A stretch of 64,000 nucleotides of DNA, from the sequence record MW822008.1. The stretch is one strand, 5' to 3'. The notes below the pieces were generated by a model that saw only the letters and a program-made list of their open reading frames with translations, made no database searches and had not been told where the DNA came from. The DNA comes from Escherichia phage BF17. The position numbers and the translations under genes are program-made. This document shows positions 18,796 through 37,114 of the stretch, piece by piece (position 1 is the first letter of the stretch; every line of letters begins with the position of its first letter).

Positions 18796-19920
18796 TTAAT
18801 TATCTAAGCCACCAATTACACTGAACAGTGTGGTAACGTCTGAACTATTATCTATGTAAGTTCTTCTACCAACATAATATAGTTGTCCTTTTGCTTGAAT
18901 AAAAGTTACGGTCCCTGTATTGAATGTTATAATATCATTGTATGTAATGTCAGGTGGTAGTGCTGCTGATAACGCAGTAACTTTACTTAATGCAGCACTA
19001 GTACTACCATTTATACCAGCAGCAATACTACCAGTACCATAGAACTTATTATCTTTACCAATGAATACGTTGGCTGATGCTTGTGTAGCTGATGTTATTG
19101 CCTTACCAATTTGGAATGCGGTTCCTATGGTGTATGGTGTGCTCCTGGCTGCGTCTATGCTTTGTGTATATCCATCCCCTAGCTGACCATTAACTTTGTC
19201 ACCACATGAGTATAAAGTACCATTGAGGCTGTATATGATCCCACGGTTAGAGAAGCTAACAGCTTCTGCATTAGTCCATACTGGAGCGGTGTATGAGTTT
19301 ACACGACTAGCAGTAGTTCCTAGTCCTAGTATACCATATGTGTTATCACCACATCCAAACCATTGTCCAGTACTGTTTTGATAGAACACTGAACGTTCTG
19401 TTGATTCCATGCGTACAGCATCCACAGCACCACTTTTAACGAACGAAGTGGATGAGGATGTAGTACCAGTACCCAATGCACCATAAGTGTTTGTACCAAT
19501 CGCATAGATTGATCCTAGTGGTGTCATCACACGTATACAGTTATATCCCAATTGAACTTTACATTCAAATAGGTTGTCCCATATTTCAGGAACAGCAGAA
19601 AATAAATTTGTAATTTCGAACCATGATGTTGTCGAACCAATTAATCCTATACTGCTTTTGTTTCCTAAAATGAAAACAGTTTTGTCCTTCTTAATTATCC
19701 ATGATGATAGGAAACCTATCTCACAGCTATGAACATTTGATTCTATTTGGGTAATATAATACTTAACTGTGTTATCACCCATGAATGCCGCAGCACCGGA
19801 TGCAAAAAGGTTTCCAGTTTGTTTATTTAAAATGTAGTTATTGTTTCCATATACACTAACATCATAAGAACTTTCTTGTTTTTCGTTCCCATAATCAAAT
19901 AACAATACGAAAGGTAACAT
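18796..19920 (-). CDS. array member 1: RCC1-like repeat protein
   Basis: 374 aa; N-term MLPFVLLFDYGN; NGQLGDG and YGILGLG repeats; Gly/Thr/Ser/Asn-rich. Confidence 0.75.
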   Translation of the reverse strand: MLPFVLLFDYGNEKQESSYDVSVYGNNNYILNKQTGNLFASGAAAFMGDNTVKYYITQIESNVHSCEIGFLSSWIIKKDKTVFILGNKSSIGLIGSTTSWFEITNLFSAVPEIWDNLFECKVQLGYNCIRVMTPLGSIYAIGTNTYGALGTGTTSSSTSFVKSGAVDAVRMESTERSVFYQNSTGQWFGCGDNTYGILGLGTTASRVNSYTAPVWTNAEAVSFSNRGIIYSLNGTLYSCGDKVNGQLGDGYTQSIDAARSTPYTIGTAFQIGKAITSATQASANVFIGKDNKFYGTGSIAAGINGSTSAALSKVTALSAALPPDITYNDIITFNTGTVTFIQAKGQLYYVGRRTYIDNSSDVTTLFSVIGGLDN

Positions 19921-19997
19921 GATAAAATCTCCTTGTGTTATACTTTATTTAATCATTTTATAATGTACAATTTTACAGCGATTTAATTGAGGTACTC

Positions 19998-20648
19998 ATG
20001 AATAAAAGAAGTAAGTTCTATCAAGAATATTTCACTAAACATAAACGATTCACAAAAAAATACTTTACATCATCCCACCGACCAGTTGCAAGTTACAAAC
20101 GTCCTAATACTAACTATCTTGCTGGTGGCAAGTTTAGTGCAAAGTTCGAATTACTTATGCGTGAAAAGAATATCAAGATGCATTACGCAGAGACGAGAAA
20201 AAACTCATCAATTATTTGCTCTGATTTTCTTGAGTACGGTTGCTTAACTTATAAATTCAATGATGTATATTTGTATATTGATGTTGATTGTAACAGTACT
20301 CTTATGTTTGAGATTTCAATTCACCCAAATCACAACCGTTATATAAACATTAACTTGATTGATAAAGTACTGATTGGTATATCTAGTACTGATGGTGGTG
20401 GATTTGAATTTATTGCTTCAAAATATGATGAAGATTTCGTACTTTACCCAGTACTTGATGATGTGAAAGATATTCTCAATTCATTAAAAGGAAGTCAATA
20501 CAAATTATCTGAAGAACAGCTATTTCAGTACTCACTTATTCATGATGATATCGAGATATACTTAGAGTGTGCGAGAATCTTGGAGTATCTTTATAATGAA
20601 CTAACAACAACTGGTAAAGTGACTGCATTCACATTATATAATATGTAA
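19998..20648 (+). CDS. hypothetical protein, paralog of 40123-40782
   Basis: 216 aa; plus-strand gene inside the minus-strand array; shares CNST and LSEE[QD]LF[QM]YS with 40123-40782. Confidence 0.65.
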   Translation: MNKRSKFYQEYFTKHKRFTKKYFTSSHRPVASYKRPNTNYLAGGKFSAKFELLMREKNIKMHYAETRKNSSIICSDFLEYGCLTYKFNDVYLYIDVDCNSTLMFEISIHPNHNRYININLIDKVLIGISSTDGGGFEFIASKYDEDFVLYPVLDDVKDILNSLKGSQYKLSEEQLFQYSLIHDDIEIYLECARILEYLYNELTTTGKVTAFTLYNM

Positions 20649-20654
20649 AAGAAA

Positions 20655-20673
20655 AGCCAGTACATAGTACTGG
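20655..20673. terminator. bidirectional hairpin
   Basis: GCCAGTACATAGTACTGGC between convergent 19998-20648 and 20681-21817. Confidence 0.55.
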
Positions 20674-20680
20674 CATTATA

Positions 20681-21817
20681 TTAAACTGGTGGAGAATTAT
20701 ATGGCTCAAATTTATAAGTTGTCGTAGCAGTACCAGCAATGGCGTTGTTAGCTAGTATGTACATAGTCCTGTAGTCGATTACCACTACAGTAATACTACC
20801 ACCAAAAGCATAGTCTGTTATGTTATTAGTGTTGAATGGTAAATTAGATGAACTGGTCCATGTATTAGCTGTTGTGCTATTTGTACCATTGGAATAACCT
20901 ACACTAGATGCACCAGTTGTCCATAAGTTTCCATCATTGAACAAGGAGACATGGTTAGTTGTATATGATTTATTAGGTATAGAACTATCAATTGGTGTAT
21001 TCCAAACTTTAGTAACCCATGTTGTAACTGCTGTATTATTAGTAACGCCATTACCTAATGAACCATTTATTGGTATACCTCTTATATAAGAAGTGTTAGT
21101 ACTAGGGTCAACATATCCAAATGTATATGTATCAAATGCAAATTGAAAACAATCAGAACTCGGTAATGTGTACAGTAATGTATATGAAGACGTGTTTATT
21201 GATGAATTTGTACCGTTCACACCTTGGTATAAAATACCACTAGCCAATATTTGATTATTATTTTTTGTTATAGTGTTCATTGATGGATATGTTTTCACAT
21301 CACGCACATCATTAGTCACATATGTTTGTGTTGATAATGCAACGTTACTACCATTACCTATAACCCCTGTATTTGCACCACTCCCATAAAGTGAACCATC
21401 ATTCAAAAGAACCATTGTAACATTACCATTTCCCGTAATTGTTTTAATATTACTAACATCCACCGCAGCAAATACAGTTGATGTTAAATCAGTGAAACGT
21501 GTATAATGTGATGTTGTGCCATTGATTGGTGTCGCAAAACCAGAATACAAAATTCTATTTTCTTTGGTAATAAGGAATGTGCCAGTAACACCATTTGAAT
21601 GGATATCAACAATATTATCGCCCATTAATACCCAATCACTTACGAATGTTGTTGTACCAGTACCCAACCCATATGTCGTATTGTATCCACGTCCATACAC
21701 TCTACCATCACTGAGTAATGTTACCACACATTGACCACCACCACCAAGTATAACTTTTTGTATAGTACTCTTTACTTTTATATTCCCGTACTTAACCATT
21801 CTTGCAAAAGGTAACAT
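20681..21817 (-). CDS. array member 2: RCC1-like repeat protein
   Basis: 378 aa; N-term MLPFARMVKYGN; 14 nt downstream of member 3, so probably co-transcribed. Confidence 0.75.
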   Translation of the reverse strand: MLPFARMVKYGNIKVKSTIQKVILGGGGQCVVTLLSDGRVYGRGYNTTYGLGTGTTTFVSDWVLMGDNIVDIHSNGVTGTFLITKENRILYSGFATPINGTTSHYTRFTDLTSTVFAAVDVSNIKTITGNGNVTMVLLNDGSLYGSGANTGVIGNGSNVALSTQTYVTNDVRDVKTYPSMNTITKNNNQILASGILYQGVNGTNSSINTSSYTLLYTLPSSDCFQFAFDTYTFGYVDPSTNTSYIRGIPINGSLGNGVTNNTAVTTWVTKVWNTPIDSSIPNKSYTTNHVSLFNDGNLWTTGASSVGYSNGTNSTTANTWTSSSNLPFNTNNITDYAFGGSITVVVIDYRTMYILANNAIAGTATTTYKFEPYNSPPV

Positions 21818-21831
21818 TCTTTTTCTCCTTG

Positions 21832-22980
21832 TTATATTGATGGCATATCCAACACATATGAGTTGCTAGTGATTGATGAATATGTAGAATTTAAACCTGT
21901 ACTATAAACATAATCACCTGCCCATAAGAATGTTCTATCCAATGTTGTATGTATTTCAATATCATCATATGATGATAATGATATTTGTGCTAGTGTATAT
22001 GTAGTAGCATCAATGTTTGAACCAATACCCAAAGTACCATTGTATTGTGATTGGGAGTTTTGACCAGTTGCATATATACCAGATTTGGTTATTAAATGCT
22101 GATTATACATTGACGTACCTTTAAACAATTTAATTAAATTAGAGTTAGGTGTTGTTATTTGTGCAGGAGCAAGTATTGTTGTTGTAGTGCCACCATCACC
22201 TAATTGTCCATATCGTTGGTAACCACCAGCGTATACCTGTTTAACTCCAGTAGTAGTTTCTATAATAAAGAATGAACCATAGCCAGTAGTATTAAAGTCT
22301 ATAATTTTATTTGTACTCAAACCAACATTATATCTAGTAAATGTTGTTGCATTAGCAGAACCACCAGCATTCCCACCGACCATTTGACCACTATAATAAA
22401 ATGCACCAGTACTGTCAGTATAAGCCATACAGTTCTCACTACCATAGATTTTTACTGGTGTACTGGGGAAACTAGAGGTTATATTCACACATGTATTATA
22501 TTTTGCAGTAGTTCCAGTAATTTCACCATTGTTGTTTTGACCAATTGCCCAAACTGTGTCATCGGAACGTATAGCCATTGAGCTAAAAAACGATGACACA
22601 AATTGTTTAATAAAGGAACCAGGGAGGGAAGTAAGCATACTATTGATTTGTGCACTCACATTGGTCCATGTATTCACAACTGAATTGACACCTGCCGCTG
22701 CACCTGAACCTGAACTCCACCATGATTCATCATTCTTTTTAATCAATGTACCGTTAGCAGAACAATAAACATCAGCAACTGAACTATTAACTAATATCCA
22801 TTCCCTCGCTGTTGTGGTATTACCAGTACCTAGCTGTCCTGCTGCATTACTACCCTTAGCATATAAATCACCACTCTGCGTTAAAAGCATAGCATGTTGG
22901 TATCCAGTAGATAATTTCTTTATTTTTGGTAATGCTGGTGCTTCATTTCCATAATCAAACATTCTAACAAAAGGTAACAT
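21832..22980 (-). CDS. array member 3: RCC1-like repeat protein
   Basis: 382 aa; MLPFVRMFDYGN; AGQLGTGNTT and YGQLGDGGTT; own TATAAT/AAGGAGG cassette. Confidence 0.75.
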   Translation of the reverse strand: MLPFVRMFDYGNEAPALPKIKKLSTGYQHAMLLTQSGDLYAKGSNAAGQLGTGNTTTAREWILVNSSVADVYCSANGTLIKKNDESWWSSGSGAAAGVNSVVNTWTNVSAQINSMLTSLPGSFIKQFVSSFFSSMAIRSDDTVWAIGQNNNGEITGTTAKYNTCVNITSSFPSTPVKIYGSENCMAYTDSTGAFYYSGQMVGGNAGGSANATTFTRYNVGLSTNKIIDFNTTGYGSFFIIETTTGVKQVYAGGYQRYGQLGDGGTTTTILAPAQITTPNSNLIKLFKGTSMYNQHLITKSGIYATGQNSQSQYNGTLGIGSNIDATTYTLAQISLSSYDDIEIHTTLDRTFLWAGDYVYSTGLNSTYSSITSNSYVLDMPSI

Positions 22981-23025
22981 AATTCCCTCCTTTATTCATT
23001 ATACTATATTTAATCAAAAAGAAAA

Positions 23026-23044
23026 GCCAGCACTCTGTACTGGC
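23026..23044 (-). terminator. inter-cassette hairpin with T-run
   Basis: GCCAGCACTCTGTACTGGC, then TATAAT and AAGGAGG of the next gene. Confidence 0.55.
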
Positions 23045-23050
23045 ATAATA

Positions 23051-24202
23051 TTATTTCCACGGTAGAAGTGAATCTGGAACTCTTGTTGGTACATTGGTTG
23101 TTGACACACCTGTGAGATTTGGAACACCACATGTATATAAATTATCAGCTTCATCCACTAGCATTGTATAAGAATATCCCCTACAAAAACTACCAATTGC
23201 ACGGCCTTCTAATGCAGAAAGATTCATTTCAGTAAATGTTGTTATATTTGCCACGTTTGAACCAACACCACATTGACCATTTGTATTCAGACCACATAAA
23301 AATAACTTATTATTATTTTTAATTGTACATGATGGCCCTGCAAGGTTTGTGCCAAGTTCACCCACCAACTCTATTTCACCTTGGAATGATAAATTTGGAA
23401 TTAATGCACTCATAGGAACTGGTGTTGTATTTCCAGTACCAGCTTGTCCCCTAACGTTAGTTGAAGCCACTTTGACGGTCCCATCATTAAGAAATATATA
23501 AGAAGTTTCAATTGTATTGACTGCTTTAGTCGCAGTAATAATAGAAGATTCTTGAGTAAATGTTAGTACGTTTTGTGCTGATGTTCCTGATACAAATGTA
23601 TTACCTGCGTACCAATATGTGCCATCATTGAGCACTAATCCAGTACTGCGTATTGCACACCCAGCACTTCGAACATTTTCAATAGTACTATAAGTGAATT
23701 GTGTAACGCTTGCAGTTGAACCATTTCCAAATACACCACCTATTCCCGCTCCACAGTAGAACCACTTTCCATTTTTTAAAAATACACGTAAACAACCAGA
23801 TATAACAATATTATCAATATCATCTGCAATAACACCGAAGTCAGCAAAGTTCTGTGTTACTTCAACCCAAACACCGTTGGTATCTGCTGATAATATTGGA
23901 ATTACAGACCTTGAACCAGTGTACCAAATAGTTCCATTTTTCTTAATAGCAATTGTACCTTGAACACCACCCCAATAACGTTCCACATTTGTATTGACAT
24001 TAGTCCATGAAGTTGATGTGTTAGTTGAGCCATATGCACCATTACCGCTTTGTCCATATGTTGCTGTACCATACCAATATAGATCGCCTGTAGTGTGTAA
24101 ATAAAATTTGGAATCAGCCGAGCATTGTAATCTATTTTTAAATATAGGTTTTGGCTCTGGTGCTACATTCCCGAACTTAACCATTCTTGCAAAAGGTAAC
24201 AT
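23051..24202 (-). CDS. array member 4: beta-propeller-like repeat protein
   Basis: ORF 23051-24268 trimmed to the conserved MLPFARMVKFGN start; the longer reading runs through the RBS. Confidence 0.7.
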   Translation of the reverse strand: MLPFARMVKFGNVAPEPKPIFKNRLQCSADSKFYLHTTGDLYWYGTATYGQSGNGAYGSTNTSTSWTNVNTNVERYWGGVQGTIAIKKNGTIWYTGSRSVIPILSADTNGVWVEVTQNFADFGVIADDIDNIVISGCLRVFLKNGKWFYCGAGIGGVFGNGSTASVTQFTYSTIENVRSAGCAIRSTGLVLNDGTYWYAGNTFVSGTSAQNVLTFTQESSIITATKAVNTIETSYIFLNDGTVKVASTNVRGQAGTGNTTPVPMSALIPNLSFQGEIELVGELGTNLAGPSCTIKNNNKLFLCGLNTNGQCGVGSNVANITTFTEMNLSALEGRAIGSFCRGYSYTMLVDEADNLYTCGVPNLTGVSTTNVPTRVPDSLLPWK

Positions 24203-24247
24203 ATTTCCTCCTTTATTCATTATACTATATTTAATATAAAAAGAAAA

Positions 24248-24266
24248 GCCAGTATCAAGTACTGGC
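24248..24266 (-). terminator. inter-cassette hairpin with T-run
   Basis: minus strand reads GCCAGTACTTGATACTGGC TTTTCTTTTT, then TATAAT, AAGGAGG, ATG. Confidence 0.6.
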
Positions 24267-24279
24267 ATAGTATTAAGGT

Positions 24280-25410
24280 TTAAATATTTTTATAATTAAT
24301 TTCTACATAGTTACGTTGTGTTCCAGTATATCCTGGAACATTACCTAAATTTCCATTACCTGCACCAAACAGACGTTCTCCGACTGCAAAATATGTCCCA
24401 TAGAAACAACCATCAAACACAGGAACATCATTATAATTTGATATGTAATTATCCATTGAATCCATTCTAGTGTATGCAGTCAGAGTTACATTTGTACCTA
24501 TACCATATGCACCATAAGGGTTAGTACCAGCAACATAATACCCAGTGGGTGTACATATTACTGGTGAATTTGCCCCTGATCTCGTGTGGATAAATCTAAA
24601 TGTACCTTCAGGTACTGGTGCTTCTTTACTGAATAATGTTGTAGCTACTACTGGGTAATCAATACCATAACTATTACCACTCAACCACGTTTTACCATCA
24701 CTATCTTTGAATAATGAACAGGATTGTGTGCATCCGAACAGATTCAAATTGGTTACATTTGGAAATTTACTAATTTGTGTATATACCAGAACTGTGGTTG
24801 CGGTAGCACTACCAAGTTGTCCACGACCATTATCACCCGCACTGTACATGTACCCATCGGTCTTTAATATTATACTAGCGTTTCCTAAAATATCAAAATC
24901 AACAACATCCGTTTGTGTTAATGTAGCTATAGGATAACGAAAATTCACTGCCTCACCAGTACCAAATTGACAATTGGTGTTTACCCCACATCCATATAAG
25001 TTGCCGTTTTGCATTAATATAAACAAACCTGTTGTCATTTTAATTTTCTTAATATTAAGAATATCTATATCTTGGAATATGTGTGTTACATTTACAAATG
25101 TGGTTGAGTTAACAGCACTTGAACCATAATAAGAACCGTTCCCGCTACCAAAGAATTCATCGCCTTTTCTGTACATTGCACATAGACTGCCACCCCATAC
25201 ATCATCAACTCCAGTGTCAATTTGAATAACTGAAGTAACACTAGTTGTTGCACCAGTGCCAAGTTCACCACCTGAATTGAATCCAAAACCATACAAATCT
25301 CCACTTTCGGTGAGCACCAAAACACTGTTAGTGGTTGTGCATGAAATCTTTTTGATATTATTAGATGGTCTTTTATTTCCGTACTTAACCATTCTTGCAA
25401 AAGGTAACAT
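24280..25410 (-). CDS. array member 5: RCC1-like repeat protein
   Basis: trimmed to MLPFARMVKYGN; GGELGTG and RGQLGS repeats. Confidence 0.7.
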   Translation of the reverse strand: MLPFARMVKYGNKRPSNNIKKISCTTTNSVLVLTESGDLYGFGFNSGGELGTGATTSVTSVIQIDTGVDDVWGGSLCAMYRKGDEFFGSGNGSYYGSSAVNSTTFVNVTHIFQDIDILNIKKIKMTTGLFILMQNGNLYGCGVNTNCQFGTGEAVNFRYPIATLTQTDVVDFDILGNASIILKTDGYMYSAGDNGRGQLGSATATTVLVYTQISKFPNVTNLNLFGCTQSCSLFKDSDGKTWLSGNSYGIDYPVVATTLFSKEAPVPEGTFRFIHTRSGANSPVICTPTGYYVAGTNPYGAYGIGTNVTLTAYTRMDSMDNYISNYNDVPVFDGCFYGTYFAVGERLFGAGNGNLGNVPGYTGTQRNYVEINYKNI

Positions 25411-25454
25411 AATTCCTCCTTTATTCATTATACTATATTTAATCAAAAATAAAA

Positions 25455-25473
25455 GCCAGTATCAAGTACTGGC
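25455..25473 (-). terminator. inter-cassette hairpin
   Basis: GCCAGTATCAAGTACTGGC on plus strand. Confidence 0.6.
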
Positions 25474-25487
25474 ATAGTTTTATAGTA

Positions 25488-26597
25488 TCATTTCGGCATT
25501 GTAATTGCAGACCATGAGTTCGTGGTAATAGGACCTGGCACATACAAAAAAGAACCACAAGCATAAATTTGATTATTACCATCAAATACTATACTAAAAT
25601 GTGCACATGTGTATAATGCTGATTTTTCTGGGTTGTAATTATCTAAAGTTAGTGTATTGGTGAATCTACTCAAACCACCACCAGAACCATTTCTACCAAA
25701 TTCACCAGTACTATATATCTTTCCTTCGGTTGTTGCGTACATATTAACATATGAAGTTGCACTTGATTTTGATATTTTATGTATCTTACTATCAATAGTA
25801 GTGGAGTTAAATGCAAATGGATATACTTGTGTGTTCGTTGTAATACCGTTACCAAGTTGACCAACATACTGCCAACCTGCGTTGTATATATTGCTGGCTG
25901 AATAAGCAAGAGTACCAGTACTGTTACCACCAAACAGTTTAACACTGGTTAACCTGCTTACTAGTGTAGTATACTGTCCTGGACTTACGCCAAGTGAACC
26001 ATACCCACTACTCCCACAACCGAGAAGTTCACCATTTGATGTTAATATTAATGTGTTATTCTGTGTACCCAATATATCAAGGACTGTATTAGCTCCGGTA
26101 TTAATAACTGAAACAAAAGTACTCTGAGCCGTGGAATACCCACCACCGAGTGAATAGTTACCATTCATGCCTCTACCATAAACAATCGAACCACTAGCAT
26201 CAACGTAGTGCATTGTATCTGCACCAATTGATATCATTTTAATATTAGATATATGTGGAAATGAAGAAGTAACATTCAAACCACCCAACGGAATCGTAGT
26301 ATTTCCTGTGCCTAATTGTGTGGTAACTCCATGCATTATGAATTCTTCACCCTTGATATAAAGAATATTGTACGCCCCAGCCCATGCATCAGTAACACCT
26401 TCTGAAATTAATATCCAAGTATTTCTTGTTGCTGTATTTGTAACGTTTAACTGAAAATACGAATTAACCCCACAACCATAAAGTGAGCCATCGCCATAGA
26501 GGACGTACAAATTATCAAGACCGCACAGTACTTTCTTTATCTTTGGATCTTCAGGTGCAATATTCCCGTAATCAAACATTCTAACAAAAGGTAACAT
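25488..26597 (-). CDS. array member 6: RCC1-like repeat protein
   Basis: trimmed to MLPFVRMFDYGN; VGQLGNG repeat. Confidence 0.7.
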   Translation of the reverse strand: MLPFVRMFDYGNIAPEDPKIKKVLCGLDNLYVLYGDGSLYGCGVNSYFQLNVTNTATRNTWILISEGVTDAWAGAYNILYIKGEEFIMHGVTTQLGTGNTTIPLGGLNVTSSFPHISNIKMISIGADTMHYVDASGSIVYGRGMNGNYSLGGGYSTAQSTFVSVINTGANTVLDILGTQNNTLILTSNGELLGCGSSGYGSLGVSPGQYTTLVSRLTSVKLFGGNSTGTLAYSASNIYNAGWQYVGQLGNGITTNTQVYPFAFNSTTIDSKIHKISKSSATSYVNMYATTEGKIYSTGEFGRNGSGGGLSRFTNTLTLDNYNPEKSALYTCAHFSIVFDGNNQIYACGSFLYVPGPITTNSWSAITMPK

Positions 26598-26642
26598 ATT
26601 TCCTCCTTTATTCATTATACTATATTTAATACAAAAAGAAAA

Positions 26643-26661
26643 GCCAGTATCAAGTACTGGC
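26643..26661 (-). terminator. inter-cassette hairpin
   Basis: GCCAGTATCAAGTACTGGC. Confidence 0.6.
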
Positions 26662-26668
26662 CTATATC

Positions 26669-27406
26669 TTAGACTGAATTGTCAGGATAATATCTCCCAC
26701 GTCCCCATATTATTCGCACAGCACCACCACCAGCAGCCGTATAAGAAGAATTATCCCATATACTACCACCACCACCATACCTCTTACCAGCACCACCACT
26801 ACCAGCACCACCATTATATGAACCATCGTAGCTACCACCAATACCATTAGCACCTTGAACAATGATACCAGTACCACCACCCGTACCAATGAACGAGGTA
26901 TTATAGAATGCACCACCACCACCGCCCCCGCCAGCACCATTTTCACCAGTGATTGCATTTCCGTTACCACCTTTACCTGTGTAGCCACCAGCACCACCAC
27001 CAATGACTGCACCACCACTTAAACCAGTGTTGCCACCATTACCACCACCATCATTAATAGCGTTAGCAGCTTTTCCACCTAGTCCACCAACCGTATATGC
27101 ACCAGTGAAGCTAACACATAGTTTTTCAGTTCCACGATATAAACCGTTTTCAACTGCTGTAGTAGTGTTGGGATGTGTAAGAGAAACACTTAAGTACTCA
27201 CCACCAGAAACCGGAATATTATTACGCCACGATAAGCCGCCACCAGCACCACGTTGACCACCCGGCGAAATAACACATACTGATATTTCGGTAACGCCAG
27301 CAGGAACTGTAAATTGTGTTGTTCCTATTGTCGTGATTAATTGTTCACCATGTGGCTTATATTCAATTTTATTCCCGAACTTAACCATTCTTGCAAAAGG
27401 TAACAT
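26669..27406 (-). CDS. array member 7: glycine-rich protein with the shared N-terminal tag
   Basis: 245 aa; MLPFARMVKFGN followed by long poly-Gly tracts. Confidence 0.7.
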   Translation of the reverse strand: MLPFARMVKFGNKIEYKPHGEQLITTIGTTQFTVPAGVTEISVCVISPGGQRGAGGGLSWRNNIPVSGGEYLSVSLTHPNTTTAVENGLYRGTEKLCVSFTGAYTVGGLGGKAANAINDGGGNGGNTGLSGGAVIGGGAGGYTGKGGNGNAITGENGAGGGGGGGAFYNTSFIGTGGGTGIIVQGANGIGGSYDGSYNGGAGSGGAGKRYGGGGSIWDNSSYTAAGGGAVRIIWGRGRYYPDNSV

Positions 27407-27451
27407 AATTCCCTCCTTTATTCATTATACTATATTTAACCAAAAAGAAAA

Positions 27452-27470
27452 GCCAGTATCAAGTACTGGC
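27452..27470 (-). terminator. inter-cassette hairpin
   Basis: GCCAGTATCAAGTACTGGC. Confidence 0.6.
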
Positions 27471-27477
27471 TTTTACA

Positions 27478-28668
27478 TTACAATTGTCTAGGTGTATCCA
27501 GTACATATCTATTTGTACTAGGACCACCATCATCATAAGTTCCGGTTGAATATATATTTTTCATATCAGCAGTTAGGAAAGTACGTAACGACCCTCGATA
27601 TATTTTTATTTTATCATACATAGAATATGTTATTTCTGACGGCAATGGACATGCAGTAAATTTACCAATGGTAACATTAGAACCAACACCCAATGAACCA
27701 GCATAACTACTCGCATTTAAACCTGTTGCATATACACCAGAACTCGTAACTAGTATACTAGATTGTGCTGGGTATCCAGTATGAATTGAATACAAAGTAC
27801 CGGGTGGTAAGGTTGAACTATTATTTCCTAATACTGCTCGTGCTGTACTAGACGTAGTGTTATTACCCCATGCCCCATTATTGGCGTTCCCACCCACTAG
27901 GAACTGACGTGCTCCTGTACTTGGATTCTCCACTAAAGCACTGACTGCACCAATTGTACATACAACATATTGTAATGTTTTTGTATATGTTGTACTTGGC
28001 TGATATAAAGTATATTGATTGTATGGAGTCCATGTATCAGTAGTACTTATACCTGATGTACTACCACCAATATATAAATTATTTTGTGTATCATAAAACA
28101 TTACACAGCTATTTGTTGACTGTATTCGTGCAATATCAACATTAGGCGTGACAGCTTTTACAAATGATCCATCTGTTATTTGTTGAGTACTACCAGTACC
28201 ATCAGCGAATTGTCTAGCCCCACTCCAACCAGTACTCCATATTGTATTATTATCCATTAAGAAAGTAAACCAAGTAGTACCTGCATACATCTGTTTAATT
28301 GAAGTACCTGAACTTTGTGTGTACAAATTTTCAATATATTGGTTATAACTTAAAAATGATGTAGTACTAGTTTCTAAACCAATATGACCACCATATCCAC
28401 AATAAAAATAATTTAAGTCCTTATCTTGAACTAACAAAGTTCCTTGTGTCATCCAGCAATCTTTGACATTTTCTCTAATTAATGTCCACGACCTTACTGC
28501 ATTATTATTTCCGCGACCGAACTTCCCATAACTATTATTTCCTCGTGCGTATAGTTGACCGTCAGTATAAAGTACAACCACATCAGTATCAGTTGGTATT
28601 ATTTTCTTAATTAGAAGAGGTTCAGGTGTGATATTCCCATAATCAAACAATCTAACAAAAGGTAACAT
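27478..28668 (-). CDS. array member 8: beta-propeller-like repeat protein
   Basis: 396 aa; MLPFVRLFDYGN; Thr/Ser/Asn/Gly-rich. Confidence 0.7.
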   Translation of the reverse strand: MLPFVRLFDYGNITPEPLLIKKIIPTDTDVVVLYTDGQLYARGNNSYGKFGRGNNNAVRSWTLIRENVKDCWMTQGTLLVQDKDLNYFYCGYGGHIGLETSTTSFLSYNQYIENLYTQSSGTSIKQMYAGTTWFTFLMDNNTIWSTGWSGARQFADGTGSTQQITDGSFVKAVTPNVDIARIQSTNSCVMFYDTQNNLYIGGSTSGISTTDTWTPYNQYTLYQPSTTYTKTLQYVVCTIGAVSALVENPSTGARQFLVGGNANNGAWGNNTTSSTARAVLGNNSSTLPPGTLYSIHTGYPAQSSILVTSSGVYATGLNASSYAGSLGVGSNVTIGKFTACPLPSEITYSMYDKIKIYRGSLRTFLTADMKNIYSTGTYDDGGPSTNRYVLDTPRQL

Positions 28669-28713
28669 ATTTCCCTCCTTTATTCATTATACTATATTTA
28701 ACCAAAAAGAAAA

Positions 28714-28732
28714 GCCAGTACTTGATACTGGC
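28714..28732 (-). terminator. inter-cassette hairpin
   Basis: GCCAGTACTTGATACTGGC. Confidence 0.6.
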
Positions 28733-28738
28733 GTAATG

Positions 28739-29881
28739 TCAATAAGCTTCCCACGGTAAGGGTGTCTTCCTAAATCCATACCTGGTTGTGGTCGCACCAT
28801 CACCAGCAATGTATCGACCGATACCACATTGGTATAACTCTGTACTACTACATATAGCACCACCAATAGTACCACTACTCCACAGAATTATATTAGAATA
28901 TGTTATTGGTAAATCACTACATTTAGTATATACACCAACGGTAGCAGCCCCACTAATACCACCAAACATACTTCGGTTAGCACCAGTATAATATATACCA
29001 TCTGGACTCATAAATGCAGAGGTGTAAGTTGTACTACAATCCACTGGACTTCTTATAGTATTAAGATCGCCTGGGTATGTCCTGGCACCAAAGGTGTATA
29101 CATTACCATCAGTTGTAATACCATTACCTAACTGCCCACTGTTTTGTCCACCACATGTAAGCAACAATGCAGAACCAGAAACAATTGCAGTAGCATTATA
29201 CGAAGTACCCATCGCAATAGAAGCACCAGACAATAGTTTTGGAGTAACAATAGCTGTTGTATTACCCTGGCCTAATTCACCATTGATATTTCGTCCCCAT
29301 GCGTATATAGAAGTTGTATCCAATCGACATAGTACTGAACCATAACTAAACGTATATCGCATGTCAATTACCGCATTAGGCAAATTAACCTTAGTTGCAA
29401 CACTAATAACACCACCAGTAACACCACTGTTTGCGTTCATGTTACGACCATATGCATATAAAGAACCATCTGAAGTTTTAATATGCATCATACCATCTGT
29501 ACAATACAATGCATCTATACTATCCACTGCAACCGGACCCATACTGGTAGTTATATCGGTCCACCCAAGCGTGGTAGTACTGGAAATTAAGTTATTTCCG
29601 GCGTATAGTATTCTATTATTATTAGTAACTACAACTGTATATCTGGCAGTAACACCAATTAATCGAACATCAGTATATATCTTAGACCACGCACCTAATG
29701 AATTGGTGTTTGCATCCAAAAAGCCCAACTGCCCATCTGTATTGTATCCAATACCCCATACATCACCTGCACTGTCCAATAACACTTCATGTGAAAATCC
29801 AATCTTAAAATCTTTTATTGTAGGAACTACCGGAACTGGTGCAATATTCCCGTACTTAACCATTCTAGCAAAAGGTAACAT
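28739..29881 (-). CDS. array member 9: RCC1-like repeat protein
   Basis: 380 aa; MLPFARMVKYGN; DGQLG, NGELGQG, SGQLGNG repeats. Confidence 0.75.
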   Translation of the reverse strand: MLPFARMVKYGNIAPVPVVPTIKDFKIGFSHEVLLDSAGDVWGIGYNTDGQLGFLDANTNSLGAWSKIYTDVRLIGVTARYTVVVTNNNRILYAGNNLISSTTTLGWTDITTSMGPVAVDSIDALYCTDGMMHIKTSDGSLYAYGRNMNANSGVTGGVISVATKVNLPNAVIDMRYTFSYGSVLCRLDTTSIYAWGRNINGELGQGNTTAIVTPKLLSGASIAMGTSYNATAIVSGSALLLTCGGQNSGQLGNGITTDGNVYTFGARTYPGDLNTIRSPVDCSTTYTSAFMSPDGIYYTGANRSMFGGISGAATVGVYTKCSDLPITYSNIILWSSGTIGGAICSSTELYQCGIGRYIAGDGATTTRYGFRKTPLPWEAY

Positions 29882-29927
29882 AATTCCCTCCTTTATTCAT
29901 TATACTATATTTAATACAAATAAGAAT

Positions 29928-29946
29928 GCCAGTATCAAGTACTGGC
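29928..29946 (-). terminator. inter-cassette hairpin
   Basis: GCCAGTATCAAGTACTGGC. Confidence 0.6.
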
Positions 29947-29952
29947 ATTATG

Positions 29953-31062
29953 TTATTTTGGTAAATCAATTTTAGTAAAGACTGCAACATCCTCGCTTGC
30001 TCCAGGAATGGCGTAATACGATCCAGTACTATACACATCTCCATCTTTGGTTAATATTGATGTCAAACCATCACTAAAAAGAACATCCCTAATTGCACTA
30101 ACTTCAACGGGTAATTGTAAATTTGTAGCACTATATATAGCACCAGTTTGAGAATTGTTTAATCCCAAACCACGGTTCGCCCCAACACCCTTCTGATATG
30201 TACTAGTAATTACCATTTGTGTCGCAGTATTTAAGGCAGGTGAATTCGTCATAAACAACGGAGAACTATTCGGCAAAGTACTTACAGGAACTGCACGGAA
30301 TGTAGTCGTACCTGAACTAAGAAAGTTTGGAGTTTGACCACATACGAAATATGATGTGCCATTATAGTAATTTAATGCATTACCACCAATTGCTGCATCG
30401 ATTACACCAGAACTACGTAATCCCCAAGTGTTAACTTGTGTTTGGCTCCCCGTGCCATGCTGCCCACTGCTATTCCATCCAGAACTATATAGCTTATTAT
30501 CTAATGTAAGATACATACTATCATTCGCATTGGTCATTACTTTACGAACGTTCGTAGCACATTGAGTTAATGTGTAAATTGATGATGAACCAATACCTAA
30601 AGAACCACGATATCCATTATCTCCTGCACCATAGAGTACTGAATTAGTGCTAAGTACAAATATTAAACCATTTGTACATACAATATTAGCAATTTCACTT
30701 ACTGGTATTGCATTTGTGAACCAACTGGTTCTATCAACTAATACAGTACTGTAAGAAGTAGTTGTGGAAGATGTGAACCAGTACGTTTGACCTGATGACC
30801 ATATCGTATTATCATTTTTAATAATAACAAGTGTACGATCACCCACGAAAAAATTAGAAACATCTGTACTTACTAATATCCATGAGGATACTGTGTTGGT
30901 ATTTCCATTTCCAGATTCACCACCTTGATTTCTACCTATGTAATATAAATCATGTGAATCTGTCAATAAGAATTGACCCTGTGTAGAAGCACCAACTTTA
31001 ATTATATTTTTAGGACCAGGTGTGATATTCCCATAATCAAACAATCTAACAAAAGGTAACAT
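29953..31062 (-). CDS. array member 10: beta-propeller-like repeat protein
   Basis: 369 aa; MLPFVRLFDYGN; 10 nt downstream of member 11. Confidence 0.7.
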   Translation of the reverse strand: MLPFVRLFDYGNITPGPKNIIKVGASTQGQFLLTDSHDLYYIGRNQGGESGNGNTNTVSSWILVSTDVSNFFVGDRTLVIIKNDNTIWSSGQTYWFTSSTTTSYSTVLVDRTSWFTNAIPVSEIANIVCTNGLIFVLSTNSVLYGAGDNGYRGSLGIGSSSIYTLTQCATNVRKVMTNANDSMYLTLDNKLYSSGWNSSGQHGTGSQTQVNTWGLRSSGVIDAAIGGNALNYYNGTSYFVCGQTPNFLSSGTTTFRAVPVSTLPNSSPLFMTNSPALNTATQMVITSTYQKGVGANRGLGLNNSQTGAIYSATNLQLPVEVSAIRDVLFSDGLTSILTKDGDVYSTGSYYAIPGASEDVAVFTKIDLPK

Positions 31063-31072
31063 ATTTCTCTCC

Positions 31073-32203
31073 TTAATTTAGTAATGCCCCTGGCAAATCC
31101 ACTTTGACGAATTGTGCATATGCTGAGGAATTTTGATCAAAGTTTGGTCCCAATCCATAAAATGAGCTAATGCCGTCTTCATTTGTGTATATGATATAAA
31201 CGTTCTTTACATCATTTCCGCATATAAATCGAATGTCTTTCGTTTGTGTTCCCGCTGGAACATTACGAAGGTTCACAACGCCATTACTTGCATTGTTATC
31301 AGCCGACGCAATTGGTAATTGATTTTGACCATATTGACCACGCATATTTTTTGCATCTAAACCAAACACAGTATCTGATACCGCACCAACTTTCAAAAAT
31401 GAACCAAAACTATTATTGAATGACTTTGGAAATGTACCACTATAAACACTTCTCCCATCTGATAATACCGCTGAACTGAATTTCCCGCTATTCGATATGG
31501 CAAATTCATTGTAAGGAAGTGTACCCATTTTGGTATATACAGAATATGAATTAGTGGAAGTATTATCAATAATCTTATTACCATTATATCCAATACCATA
31601 CTGGTATCCGTCTGCATCTTGAACTATACACAAAGGACCACTTGGGGTTTGTGTCAACGAAACAACACGTTCAACTTGTATATCACCAAATGTATTTCTT
31701 CGCCATGTTCTATCTATTATAGTACTAGTATTACCCAAAGATAATGCCACACTATATAATAGATTGTTTTCAGTAAAAATGGCAACATAATATGCGTGGT
31801 TAATAACTTGCTTCATCCCAGCATCAATAACTTCCTGTGGAATATGATCAGTAACATCCAACCAATCAAGGTTAGATGATGCAATATCTGGAGTACTGAA
31901 TTTGTCAAATCTAGTTGAGCCACAAACTAGCACTCTATCATCATTTGTCAAAGCCACTGTGCTAGTCTGCATATTAGAACTGAATGATTTAACATTACTA
32001 ATGTTAGACTTGTACCAACCCTTATCAGCAGCACCCACCGTGAATCCGGTTCCCATTGATCCACTTGTACTTGTACCATAAGCCCACATCTCACCACTAT
32101 ATGTTAGTGCCATACAGTGGCTTCCATTTGCTTGGAAATCCTTTATACCAGTGGGAGCAACCACTGTATTCCCATAATCAAACATTCTAACAAAAGGTAA
32201 CAT
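31073..32203 (-). CDS. array member 11: beta-propeller-like repeat protein
   Basis: trimmed to MLPFVRMFDYGN; more divergent body. Confidence 0.65.
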   Translation of the reverse strand: MLPFVRMFDYGNTVVAPTGIKDFQANGSHCMALTYSGEMWAYGTSTSGSMGTGFTVGAADKGWYKSNISNVKSFSSNMQTSTVALTNDDRVLVCGSTRFDKFSTPDIASSNLDWLDVTDHIPQEVIDAGMKQVINHAYYVAIFTENNLLYSVALSLGNTSTIIDRTWRRNTFGDIQVERVVSLTQTPSGPLCIVQDADGYQYGIGYNGNKIIDNTSTNSYSVYTKMGTLPYNEFAISNSGKFSSAVLSDGRSVYSGTFPKSFNNSFGSFLKVGAVSDTVFGLDAKNMRGQYGQNQLPIASADNNASNGVVNLRNVPAGTQTKDIRFICGNDVKNVYIIYTNEDGISSFYGLGPNFDQNSSAYAQFVKVDLPGALLN

Positions 32204-32245
32204 AACTAAAATCTCCATATAATAATTATAATGTATTTACAAAAA

Positions 32246-32269
32246 AATACCAGTACGTATTTCAGTACT
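32246..32269 (-). terminator. inter-cassette hairpin (variant)
   Basis: ACCAGTACGTATTTCAGTACTGGT. Confidence 0.5.
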
Positions 32270-32277
32270 GGTATCAT

Positions 32278-33459
32278 TTATGGTAAAATGATAGATTGTA
32301 ACGAACTCATACCCAATGCTGGAACACTAGCCTGTGGTGCTGGAGAATTCAATTTTGGTGATGAAACCGCATAAGTCATTCCTGTACCCAAATCTGGATC
32401 AAAAACTACAGCACAATAATTCCCACTATATATAAGTCCATTCTTGTATCCTTGTGCACTTTGAATGCATTTCGTGAACGTACCAATATCTGTAGTGGCA
32501 TTTATTAAGTTCCTCCCACGATAACCGCAGGTGTATATGAAATTATCATCGCCTATGTACATACTAGAATCCCCAGAAGAACTACATAGATACGACATAT
32601 AAGCACGCATGTTTTTAGGAGCAACTGACAATGTACCTGCATAGAATTTATTATTCGAACCCGTAATATCACCATCACCCAATGCACCAAAACTTCCCCA
32701 GCCAGTACCGTAATATCTCTTATCACTCAAAAATATAATACAGTTGTTATTACACATCTTGATTTGATATATCAATGAAGGATCAACCCCAGGGAATGAT
32801 TCAGTGAATGTTAGAACAGCCGGATCAGTACTAGCATTACATTGATGATATGTATTAGTACCAGCGGACAAGATTGTTCCATTAGCTAACAGAATTCTCG
32901 CAGTACCAGTACCAGCAGTACAAGCAACTGCACTTCCTGCACTTCCGGTGTATATTTGTCTGAAAGTAAAGAAACCAACAGTCTTACTCCCTTGTCCACT
33001 CCAACCAGTATTATCAACACCACACGCCCATACTGAACCATCTTCCATGATCATCATTACACCAAAGCGTTCTATTGAAATATAAACAATCTTTTTAGTA
33101 TCAACTGCACGAAATCTAGAAGTTATATCCGTCCAAACCTTTACACTTACCGAAGTCGCACTGGAAGTAGGATCTTCACCTGCTATCATTATCCTACCAT
33201 TGTTAGTCAGATACATTGTCTGACTATAACCAGTACTACAAAACTTAACACTATCAGTCTCTGGAACTTTTAACCACTCGTTGTAACGTGTTACGTTAGT
33301 GTTATTACCTAACTGATAATAGTTATTCATCCCAGATACATATAACACACCATCCTTTATTAAACTATAAGTCGCACTATAGTCACTACAGGTATAACGT
33401 GTACCCACAGGTCGCTCAACGACGTTCCCATAATCAAACATTCTAACAAAAGGTAACAT
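32278..33459 (-). CDS. array member 12: beta-propeller-like repeat protein
   Basis: 393 aa; MLPFVRMFDYGN; 9 nt downstream of member 13. Confidence 0.7.
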   Translation of the reverse strand: MLPFVRMFDYGNVVERPVGTRYTCSDYSATYSLIKDGVLYVSGMNNYYQLGNNTNVTRYNEWLKVPETDSVKFCSTGYSQTMYLTNNGRIMIAGEDPTSSATSVSVKVWTDITSRFRAVDTKKIVYISIERFGVMMIMEDGSVWACGVDNTGWSGQGSKTVGFFTFRQIYTGSAGSAVACTAGTGTARILLANGTILSAGTNTYHQCNASTDPAVLTFTESFPGVDPSLIYQIKMCNNNCIIFLSDKRYYGTGWGSFGALGDGDITGSNNKFYAGTLSVAPKNMRAYMSYLCSSSGDSSMYIGDDNFIYTCGYRGRNLINATTDIGTFTKCIQSAQGYKNGLIYSGNYCAVVFDPDLGTGMTYAVSSPKLNSPAPQASVPALGMSSLQSIILP

Positions 33460-33468
33460 GATTTTCTC

Positions 33469-34662
33469 CTATGATTGCCATAACTGCGTTGGCATTAATG
33501 TTAATGTTTTAATTAAGTAAGTACCATCCGGTAAGTTACCACCTGAACCGTTAAAGCCCCCACATGCATATAATTTATAATCTTTAGTTATAATTATTGT
33601 TCTGGACCAGTCTTTGGATGCCATAAGAACATTGTCATATCCACCCTGTATCGCACTTAAAGAAAACGCCCCCCACGAAGTAATTACTGTTGTATTTCCC
33701 GTCCCTTCTTGACCATATGTATTGATGCCTGCACTCCTGACATATGATGGGTATTGAGCCATAGGTGCACCAATTGTTGAGTTACCCATATTACTAGGAC
33801 ACAGGAAACCATCACTAATATTCACTATAACCTGTGAATTCTGAACTGTAGTTAATTGGTTTGTAGTTGAAGTAGTACCATTCCCAGCTTGTCCAGAATT
33901 GTTTCTACCACTCCAGTACACCCTACCGGCAGTGAACCACCAGGTAACATCATAAGTAGCACTTATATAATCGACGTTGGTTCGTATTAATTTATTAGTA
34001 AAAACGTATGAGCTAGTCCCACCACCACTTTCACCAAAGTTATCCTTACCACAAAACCATGCTTCTTTATTTGTTTTGAGATAGTGCGTACCCTGTAATG
34101 AACACGCCAATTGAGAAACTTCACCCATACCAGTAACAACTGTTAGTACTGGAATGGAATTTTGGTTACCTGTTCCACATTCGGCATTTGCATTTTTACC
34201 ACAAACAACTACTCTTCCATCGTGTAGTAATATTCTAGTACTTTCACCTATATGTACACTCTTGATTAAATTAGCGTGTACATTTATTTTGTTAAATGCG
34301 GCAGTAACATCAGTCCATGTTCTAAAATAACCATTAACTGGAGTTGCATCTCCATAATCGGGGAATGCTACAGTATTCCCTGTGAAATATATTCTATTAT
34401 CCAAGTCAATCATCAATGAGCCATGAACGCCTAACCAAAAGGCTGCACAGTGCGTTGCCAGTACTGTAAAAGTAGAAACTGTCGATTGATTCCCTAGACC
34501 TAATTGGCTCAAGTTATTACCACCATAACCGTATAGTGTATTCGTGGGCTTATGTAGATACATAGCATTAGTATAATGTTGCTGTAAAACATCAGTGAAC
34601 TCAACTGGTTCAGGAATAGGCAGTTTATTCCCGTATTTAACCATTCTTGCAAAAGGTAACAT
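33469..34662 (-). CDS. array member 13: RCC1-like repeat protein
   Basis: 397 aa; MLPFARMVKYGN. Confidence 0.7.
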   Translation of the reverse strand: MLPFARMVKYGNKLPIPEPVEFTDVLQQHYTNAMYLHKPTNTLYGYGGNNLSQLGLGNQSTVSTFTVLATHCAAFWLGVHGSLMIDLDNRIYFTGNTVAFPDYGDATPVNGYFRTWTDVTAAFNKINVHANLIKSVHIGESTRILLHDGRVVVCGKNANAECGTGNQNSIPVLTVVTGMGEVSQLACSLQGTHYLKTNKEAWFCGKDNFGESGGGTSSYVFTNKLIRTNVDYISATYDVTWWFTAGRVYWSGRNNSGQAGNGTTSTTNQLTTVQNSQVIVNISDGFLCPSNMGNSTIGAPMAQYPSYVRSAGINTYGQEGTGNTTVITSWGAFSLSAIQGGYDNVLMASKDWSRTIIITKDYKLYACGGFNGSGGNLPDGTYLIKTLTLMPTQLWQS

Positions 34663-34725
34663 ATTTCCCTCCTTTATTCATTATACTATATTTAATCAAA
34701 AATAAATGCCAGTACTCATTTAATT

Positions 34726-35880: not shown

Positions 35881-35926
35881 ATTCCCTCCTTTATTCATTA
35901 TAATATATTTAATACAAAAAAGAAAA

Positions 35927-35945
35927 GCCAGTATCAAGTACTGGC
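35927..35945 (-). terminator. inter-cassette hairpin
   Basis: GCCAGTATCAAGTACTGGC. Confidence 0.6.
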
Positions 35946-35953
35946 ATATTAAT

Positions 35954-37102: not shown

Positions 37103-37114
37103 ATTTCCTCCAAA

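Follow-up and report, generated by a model that had tools for sequence, protein, structure and literature searches.

Why does a small glycine-rich protein stand inside a tandem array of propeller genes, and why does it begin with the same residues as they do? The gene that raises this question lies in a 64,000-nt stretch of the genome of Escherichia phage BF17 (MW822008.1; hereafter the window), a jumbo coliphage of the Asteriusvirus type that belongs with 121Q, PBECO4, and phAPEC6 to the 'Rak2-like' group. It is a complete coding sequence (26669–27406, minus strand) of 245 amino acids plus stop. The product shares 99.6% of its residues with a hypothetical protein from Escherichia phage Turkey3, and its orthologue in phage 121Q is gp243 (~94% identity); all of its orthologues are annotated 'hypothetical'. 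The gene is the seventh among 16 tandem minus-strand genes that span positions 18796–38020, away from the main structural (tail and capsid) gene module. Fourteen of the 16 proteins match RCC1-like Pfam models, including those encoded on either side of the glycine-rich gene, and the last gene of the array (37115–38020) encodes a Kelch propeller. The BF17 glycine-rich protein belongs to neither class: a Pfam scan returned no propeller match and no match of any kind at E up to 1, and a PHROGs search led to the unnamed family phrog_4474, function unknown, and to nothing else. The initial annotation, which had proposed that the propeller body is replaced in this member while a shared N-terminal tag is kept, was therefore correct on the missing propeller, and on the tag as well, which all 16 array genes encode.

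All 16 array proteins start with MLPF[AV][RL][ML][VF][KD][YF]GN. In the glycine-rich protein this segment reads MLPFARMVKFGN (codons 1–12; 27371–27406, minus strand), the 'A-R-M-V-K' form in the tag alignment, and it is held in common with the 15 neighbours. At the DNA level the pattern ATGTTACCTTTYG was observed 16 times where 0.31 occurrences are expected, and none of 100 shuffles reached 16. The 14 RCC1 paralogues are mutually only 16–30% identical, and six of the eight invariant columns of their alignment fall within the tag (M1, L2, P3, F4, G11, and N12). The tag is joined to the body by a linker, KIEYKPH (codons 13–19; 27350–27370, minus strand; mean pLDDT ~70 over residues 11–20), at whose position the paralogues mostly have a Pro-rich stretch. 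AlphaFold confidence over the tag is low (mean pLDDT 50 for residues 1–10, below 50 at residues 4–7), so that the tag is disordered on its own. The RCC1 neighbour encoded at 25488–26597 was modelled likewise with the tag as a disordered extension and the propeller starting at residue 20. Both models, glycine-rich and RCC1, show a disordered stretch of 10–19 residues ahead of a fold that sets in at residue 20; on these grounds we ruled out that the tag serves as the closing 'velcro' strand of the propellers.

The resemblance among the array genes extends upstream. In front of the ATG of the glycine-rich gene stand, in this order, a hairpin (GCCAGTACTTGATACTGGC), a T-run, an AT-rich box (TTAAATATAGTATAATG), and a ribosome-binding site (AAAGGAGGG), all on the minus strand. 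The hairpin is terminator-like (AAAAGCCAGTACTTGATACTGGCTTTT; 27448–27474); together with the T-run that comes after it (27440–27447), it closes off the upstream gene and forms the first element of the cassette. The box (27423–27439) resembles a promoter in having a -10-type TATAAT but lacks a -35 element, and a sigma-70 scan did not list it; any function is putative. The Shine-Dalgarno sequence (27411–27419) ends 4 bases 5' of the ATG. A further terminator-like hairpin just past the stop codon (26641–26663, minus strand) starts the cassette of the next gene. The same elements precede about 10 of the 16 array genes, the glycine-rich one among these, which agrees with the shared cassette described in the initial annotation. 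Each array gene may form a unit of its own, with terminator hairpin, AT-rich box, and ribosome-binding site, and the repeated cassette and tag would offer homology for the swapping of bodies. Over its 36 bases the tag is 78–100% identical to that of the glycine-rich gene in 14 of the 15 other members (64% in the outlying first member), and in member 4 (ATG at 24202) it is identical base for base. In the 60 bases after the tag, DNA identity drops to as little as 18–37%, which is chance level.

Tandem variable genes that each lie behind a stem-loop and promoter cassette are known from the internal-protein loci of T-even phages, and such cassettes, termed PeSL, have been regarded as possible recombination points (PMC2839356, PMC4122927). 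PeSL promoters are of the early sigma-70 type with a -35 element, whereas the box in the BF17 array consists of a -10-like element alone. A PeSL-like organisation would account for a glycine-rich body that follows a tag identical to that of member 4. It also raises the question of whether the peptide matters at all. Near-identity of cassette and tag between genes of unrelated bodies, with a sharp edge at codon 12, is the signature of PeSL cassette shuffling (PMC2839356, PMC4122927), and the 36 bases might be kept purely as a regulatory or recombination cassette, with the glycine-rich gene as its passenger. Comparison with other genera makes this very improbable. In Pectobacterium phage CBB, ten proteins begin with MLPFxxxxxY[GA]N (the glycine-rich CBB_144, three Kelch proteins, two Laminin_G_3 proteins, and four others), and Erwinia phage pEa_SNUABM_12 carries a 10-gene array whose products begin with MLPF, two glycine-rich members included. 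The DNA upstream of these genes is unlike the BF17 cassette, and M-L-P-F and the later tag pattern persist nevertheless. Across the tagged genes, leucine is encoded by TTA, CTT, or CTA, proline by CCT, CCA, CCG, or CCC, and phenylalanine by TTT or TTC; substitutions among the 16 local tags are for the most part synonymous too, and the tag is still present in virion proteins (see below). Altogether the peptide has been conserved in 36 genes from three phage genera, where four or more kinds of body carry it, and its Leu, Pro, and Phe codons vary synonymously across these genes. Its disorder outside both modelled folds, its much stronger conservation than that of the bodies, and its recurrence across genera on unrelated bodies show together that the tag is an element independent of the body and that selection maintains it as a peptide. 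The differing upstream DNA in the Pectobacterium and Erwinia phages and the same synonymous variation further indicate that the hairpin and promoter cassette is a local feature of the BF17 array and that the peptide is old and selected. In the searchable literature we found no description of a shared MLPF tag.

Glycine accounts for 70 of the 245 residues of the BF17 protein (28.6%) and for 38.6% of residues 101–245. The initial annotation had spoken of long poly-glycine tracts; the protein is indeed glycine-rich, but the wording overstated the case because the glycine is distributed over 18 short runs of two or more residues, the longest being G7, with two to eight other residues between runs. 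We found 186 sequence homologues, mostly stand-alone proteins of ~250 residues. They have in common the core GQ..FT..GT..W.VP.GVTSI..V.VG.GG..GGGLSWRNNIPVTPGE, glycine motifs such as DGGGNGG and GGGAGGYSGNGG, and a C-terminal GAVRIIWG; W234, G235, and P241 are unchanged throughout the family. Among 80 aligned homologues, 25 matched PF21722 (Gly_rich_2; best E = 3.5e-11), and phmmer searches with the BF17 protein recovered these PF21722-matching homologues at E = 1e-15 to 1e-6. The BF17 protein itself stays under the PF21722 reporting threshold; as it reaches no Pfam model directly, its membership in the family rests on transitive homology and on fold. With a limit of E = 0.001, an exhaustive profile search yielded 6,584 cluster representatives, of which 1,765 also passed a limit of E = 1e-30; they comprise stand-alone proteins as well as domains that occur in two to at least five copies within proteins of 500–5,000 residues. 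Against PDB sequences the profile gave spurious matches only (a galectin, a Gly/Ser linker). Taken by itself the glycine-rich body is ordinary and adds one more protein to a very large family that already has a name. Its 13 Asteriusvirus orthologues differ at 25 positions, mostly at non-Gly residues between the glycine motifs. Variation this modest gives no strong sign of diversifying selection; the location of the variable sites is weakly consistent with turns that contact a ligand.

Structure prediction with AlphaFold2, supplied with the homologue alignment, resulted in a model of high overall confidence (mean pLDDT 93.3, pTM 0.89), with low confidence for residues 1–19, a well-defined body from residue 20 to 245, and the first strand starting at residue 20. 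The coding sequence (26669–27406) can thus be divided from end to end into tag, linker, a beta-sandwich, and a glycine-rich domain. The sandwich (residues 20–100; 27107–27349, minus strand) contains the family motif FTVPAGVTEISVCVISPGG...GGGLSWRNNIPV and appears TNF-like by analogy with gp24, a tail fibre protein of cyanophage Pam3. The glycine-rich domain (residues 101–228; 26723–27106, minus strand) probably consists of extended glycine-rich strands that are bundled together and linked by turns of non-Gly residues. Alignment and model place a C-terminal strand, AVRIIWG, and a tail at residues 229–245 (26672–26722, minus strand). The boundary between sandwich and glycine-rich domain at residue 100 is our own reading of the sequence and the strand pattern. 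A beta-sandwich followed by a glycine-rich strand bundle is the arrangement of Gly_rich_2 proteins, of Pam3 gp24, and of the ALK glycine-rich domain, and the model of the BF17 protein has this arrangement. We hold the assignment of its body to this fold and family with high confidence.

The closest solved relative is the Pam3 tail fibre gp24 (PDB 7YPX; values of 12.9 and 168 in the structural comparison, 17% identity). It is followed by the tail wing brush gp33 of mycobacteriophage Bxb1 (PDB 9D93; 9.5 and 141, 25%), the Bxb1 tail spike gp29 (8.5 and 137, 15%), and four structures of the ALK glycine-rich domain (7.5–7.9 and 107–111, 15–21%). Without exception, the solved relatives are virion appendages or an extracellular receptor domain. 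Matching predicted viral structures are mostly labelled 'glycine-rich domain-containing protein', and some bear the names of baseplate, tail-fibre, or minor-tail proteins. According to the Pam3 paper, gp24 consists of a helical docking domain at the N-terminus, a TNF-like domain, and stacked glycine-rich motifs, and its variable distal turns are proposed as receptor binders; the 'polyglycine-rich' or 'brush' domains of siphophages are likewise held to be candidate anti-receptors. There are clear differences from each of these systems. The alpha-helical domain of Pam3 gp24 trimerises and docks to the baseplate, and the chaperone gp25 is required, whereas the BF17 protein has a 12-residue tag and a linker instead of a helical domain and no chaperone gene next to its own. 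Bxb1 gp33 and the brush domains of siphophage hubs serve Gram-positive-like hosts, have another attachment partner, and bear no MLPF tag. ALK, finally, is a eukaryotic receptor whose ectodomain binds a cytokine, in contrast to a phage protein of the same glycine-rich fold.

The initial annotation had likened the glycine-rich segments to phage adhesin tips such as T-even gp38. Had the protein been an adhesin of this type, it would cap the tip of the long tail fibre and set host range. Comparison of the family profile with T6 gp38 by hhalign gave a probability of 1.2% and BLASTP an E value of 5.1; a profile search of PDB sequences that admitted matches up to E = 10 brought up no gp38 chain, and there is none among the best 50 Foldseek matches. 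For the gp38 receptor-binding domain, the structural comparison gave values of 4.0 and 66 (23% identity). Hallmarks of gp38 are an N-terminal domain for attachment to gp37, five glycine-rich motifs (GRMs) with four hypervariable segments (HVSs), and a gene directly after gene 37. In the BF17 protein the gp37-attachment domain is absent, and its place is taken by the 12-residue tag, the linker, and the beta-sandwich. T6 gene 38 comes after gene 37, whereas the BF17 gene is flanked by RCC1 paralogues and has no gene 37 beside it. With the sequence tests negative and the hallmarks absent or not comparable, tests of sequence, domain architecture, and synteny together rule out homology to gp38, and a gp38-like role at the long-tail-fibre tip is exceedingly improbable. 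The gp38 proteins of T2, T6, and S16 differ from the BF17 protein in their middle domain, gene neighbourhood, and gp37-binding N-terminal domain, and the likeness is one of structural principle only, a glycine-rich core that holds variable loops. Of the earlier adhesin-tip reading, the reference to gp38 falls, but the structural model retains a glycine-rich fold of the tail-fibre and brush type.

Whether tagged proteins are part of the virion can be judged from published data on relatives of BF17, from which both virion incorporation and retention of the tag are derived here. CBB_144 has the same architecture as the BF17 protein and 36% identity to it over residues 1–120. It is listed in the ESI-MS/MS table of CBB virions with five unique peptides and 34% coverage (PMC5259590). 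Besides CBB_144, the tagged CBB proteins 536, 537, 548, 549, 551, 552, and 553 are annotated as structural; the CBB paper reports 536, 537, 551, and 552 as identified by mass spectrometry and states that CBB_552 is part of the mature particle (PMC5259590). In the CBB peptide file, three tagged proteins are represented, and for two of these the peptide includes part of the tag: IAPYQILYEMK corresponds to residues 14–24 of CBB_144, LFEYANVIIPPNYK to residues 7–20 of CBB_536, including tag residues 7–12, and YANVIVEYATK to residues 10–20 of CBB_548, including tag residues 10–12 (PMC5259590). Tag residues 1–6 were never seen by mass spectrometry. The second half of the tag is present in mature CBB particles, which argues against a cleaved propeptide, and with tag residues among the virion peptides we ruled this candidate out.

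In phAPEC6, the virion proteome of 62 proteins includes gp003, gp005, gp006, gp007, gp009, and gp010, which are annotated genes of the array, and also gp549 and gp551, which bear the same 'DNA condensation protein' label (PMC7247149); these eight proteins were chosen by array position or label and not by their N-termini. GAP32 gp1 was likewise detected in virions (PMC7247149). The phAPEC6 orthologue of the glycine-rich protein is missing from the virion list. In the phAPEC6 record, gp004 at this locus is a 100-amino-acid open reading frame in another frame, and the true gene, which is intact there (244 amino acids, with G6 in place of G7), is unannotated. The absence is therefore uninformative, as the true protein was probably outside the search database, and we rejected the phAPEC6 proteomics as counter-evidence to virion association.

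A protein with a role inside the infected cell, for example in binding a host or phage factor, would also produce a mass-spectrometric signal in CBB if it reached virion preparations as carry-over. This alternative draws on gene neighbourhood, as homologues lie close to genes for nucleotide metabolism and replication (flanked by nrdD and nrdG in CBB, beside a DNA polymerase gene in a Seunavirus); the context of the distant homologues in the Seunavirus and in a phiTE-like metagenomic contig offered no clue to function. We consider it quite improbable in view of the peptide number and coverage of CBB_144, the other tagged proteins detected alongside, and the nature of the solved structural relatives.

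More weight attaches to the question of which side of the capsid the tagged proteins occupy. Internal proteins of T4 have in common an N-terminal targeting peptide of ~10 residues. The MLPF tag could similarly be a capsid-targeting signal, in this case uncleaved, that loads diversified proteins into the head for injection with the DNA, where they would, for example, organise DNA or counter host defences. The layout of the array resembles that of the genes for the injected internal proteins of T-even phages, with divergent tandem genes, a stem-loop and promoter cassette (PMC4122927), and a conserved N-terminal peptide of ~10–12 residues, and the array is distant from the tail and capsid gene module. 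The reading keeps some probability because mass spectrometry of virions is blind to inside and outside, and because an inner-body role in organising DNA was put forward for the RCC1 paralogues by the phAPEC6 authors. We nevertheless regard it as unlikely. The head protease of T4 cuts the targeting peptides away at a conserved L/I-x-E motif, whereas CBB virion proteins keep tag residues 7–12, and neither the 16 local tags nor those of CBB have a conserved Glu within or after the tag. Furthermore, the body folds are typical of external binding modules: the glycine-rich fold occurs in tail fibres, brushes, and giant multi-domain proteins, and CBB has the tag on Laminin_G_3 domains as well.

Most likely, the glycine-rich protein belongs to a large set of surface-binding heads that the virus particle can exchange for one another. 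This reading rests on a tag that is common to 15 neighbours and from a brush domain like those in the tail fibres of other phages. Reading frame, tag, cassette, fold, family membership, and selection on the tag peptide are demonstrated by the analysis; beyond these, we infer for the glycine-rich protein a docking role, an external location, and ligand binding. To the more specific proposal, that it is a small accessory virion protein in which an uncleaved docking peptide presents one of several binding heads, we assign an even probability. According to this proposal, the tag would be disordered alone and become ordered on binding a virion site common to all 16 tagged proteins. It would be followed by the short linker and by the head, a TNF-like beta-sandwich (again by analogy with Pam3 gp24) whose strands run on into the glycine-rich domain, as in the heads of Pam3 gp24, the Bxb1 gp33 brush, and the ALK glycine-rich domain. 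The variable Tyr-, Asn-, and Ser-rich turns between the glycine motifs may touch a ligand on the host surface. The phage would carry a mixed set of RCC1, Kelch, and glycine-rich heads. Hair-like appendages are found on the tails of phAPEC6 and CBB and also on the phAPEC6 capsid, and these may be one possible site of the tagged proteins.

The closest known principle for such a tag is that of the docking peptides of K1-5/SP6-, KP32-, and KP34-type phages. In K1E, K1-5, and SP6 and in phages of the KP32 and KP34 types, N-terminal peptides of 7–29 residues are found on unrelated secondary receptor-binding proteins and are proposed to attach these to an adapter or branching domain (PMC6872550). As in BF17, proteins of the same phage that are otherwise unrelated begin with a short conserved peptide. 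Their peptides sit on trimeric tailspikes or depolymerases, one to few per phage, and have a T4 gp10-like domain or an adapter as partner, whereas in BF17 a single tag is borne by 16 proteins, all small and globular, with three or more folds among them. These tagged bodies, an RCC1-like propeller, a Kelch propeller, and a glycine-rich head, are not trimeric tailspikes or depolymerases. The BF17 system would be the docking-peptide principle in a new form. The related jumbo phage RaK2 uses whole N-terminal domains for tail-fibre assembly, unlike the short peptide in BF17, and was ruled out as an instance of the same system.

The initial annotation had also suggested that the tag presents unrelated binding modules. 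At least four kinds of body do carry it, and these would be the binding heads. A broader and more tentative extension is that MLPFxxxxxY[GA]N and its variants form a portable virion-display signal of Rak2-like jumbo phages, by which 10–16 unrelated heads would be brought to one common site. The heads would be RCC1, Kelch, Laminin_G_3-type, and glycine-rich brush domains, and the site may be the tail or capsid 'hairs'. If so, one particle would carry a combinatorial and quickly exchangeable coat of binding heads. A tag that acts as a docking signal would furthermore provide a compact handle for the display of foreign proteins on jumbo phages and a clue to what the hairs are made of.

In jumbo phages related to 121Q, phAPEC6, and CBB, the RCC1-type arrays still bear the annotation 'chromosome condensation', and recent Asteriusvirus genome papers colour the array genes as 'chromosome condensation' proteins. 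Because one tag joins propellers, lectin-like domains, and a glycine-rich head, and because tagged proteins are found in virions, we recast the array as a probable library of surface-binding heads. Within BF17 the tag exists in two charge-opposite forms, ..MVKYGN and ..MFDYGN, which could address two different sites.

In the tandem array (window 18796-38020, minus strand), the tag codons of the 16 genes specify two versions of the shared 12-residue N-terminal tag, which starts with MLPF; at position 9 the two carry opposite charges. The form A-R-M-V-K-[YF]-G-N is carried by six of the 16 genes, including that of the glycine-rich target protein (26669-27406), and V-R-[ML]-F-D-Y-G-N by ten, including that of the Kelch member; genes with one form alternate irregularly with genes carrying the other. 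Each form could be directed to its own docking site, or the two could pair with each other. Two forms, MLPFPIIS.T and MLPF.RI.EYGN, likewise occur in Erwinia phage pEa_SNUABM_12, where all ten proteins of a ten-gene array (locus L007, 8874-18934) begin with MLPF. Alongside RCC1-like, Kelch and 'structural' members, this array includes two that are Gly-rich, and the annotation of one Gly-rich member is PE-PGRS family protein. The Kelch-repeat protein of the window (301 aa; 37115-38020, minus strand) is the final array member and has the same tag and cassette. It shares 37% identity with CBB_550, and its orthologue in phage vB_Ec-M-J, 99% identical, bears the annotation of virion structural protein.

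Beyond Rak2-like phages, members of the Gly-rich family begin instead with the conserved sequence M[LI]E[LM]L..., which may be another lineage-specific N-terminal signal. Two tandem Gly-rich paralogues of 248 and 247 aa lie immediately upstream of the terminase gene on a metagenomic contig with phiTE-type head genes (locus L005, 7879-9372). Stand-alone Gly-rich genes, as in Pectobacterium phage CBB and a Seunavirus, have non-structural neighbourhoods: CBB_144 (locus L001, 6001-6765) is flanked by nrdD and nrdG, and the gene of Salmonella phage NINP13076 (Seunavirus; locus L004, 7998-8840) lies immediately 3' of the DNA polymerase gene. These stand-alone genes behave like mobile single-gene insertions.

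A close relative of the target from a metagenomic contig, P0002 (206 aa), has the N-terminus MNKGGN-KIEYKPHGEQ, and relative to window 27371-27419 exactly the 36 bases of the tag are missing. GGGAAT repeats occur in the RBS region and at codons 11-12, and the gap looks like a deletion between the two; P0002 could represent a naturally occurring variant that lacks the tag, or the gap could stem from faulty assembly.

Because glycine codons are GC-rich, another frame of the target gene contains a shadow ORF of 102 aa (MVVQSLVVVLV...; 26710-27018, minus strand). It is this shadow ORF that is annotated in the record of the related jumbo coliphage phAPEC6, as gp004 (locus L002, 7716-8018), and the true 244-aa gene carries no annotation. 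Glycine-run length also differs among orthologues, the G7 run of the target (residues 159-165; 26927-26947) corresponding to G6 in phAPEC6 through a 3-base deletion within the GGC/GGG repeat.

The hairpin of the cassette is a near-perfect palindrome. Compared with the copies at 27448-27474, 26641-26663, 25455-25473, 24248-24266 and 35927-35945, the element at 28714-28732 is flipped as a whole, its inverted loop reading GCCAGTATCAAGTACTGGC on the minus strand where the others have GCCAGTACTTGATACTGGC. Since ATGAATAAAGGAGG of the cassette is in frame, mechanical ORF calls place the starts of several paralogues 5' of MLPF, e.g., as MNKGGN-MLPF... (ORFs 23051-24268, 24280-25446, 25488-26615, 31073-32218 and 34726-36015); the position of the RBS indicates that their true start is the ATG of MLPF.
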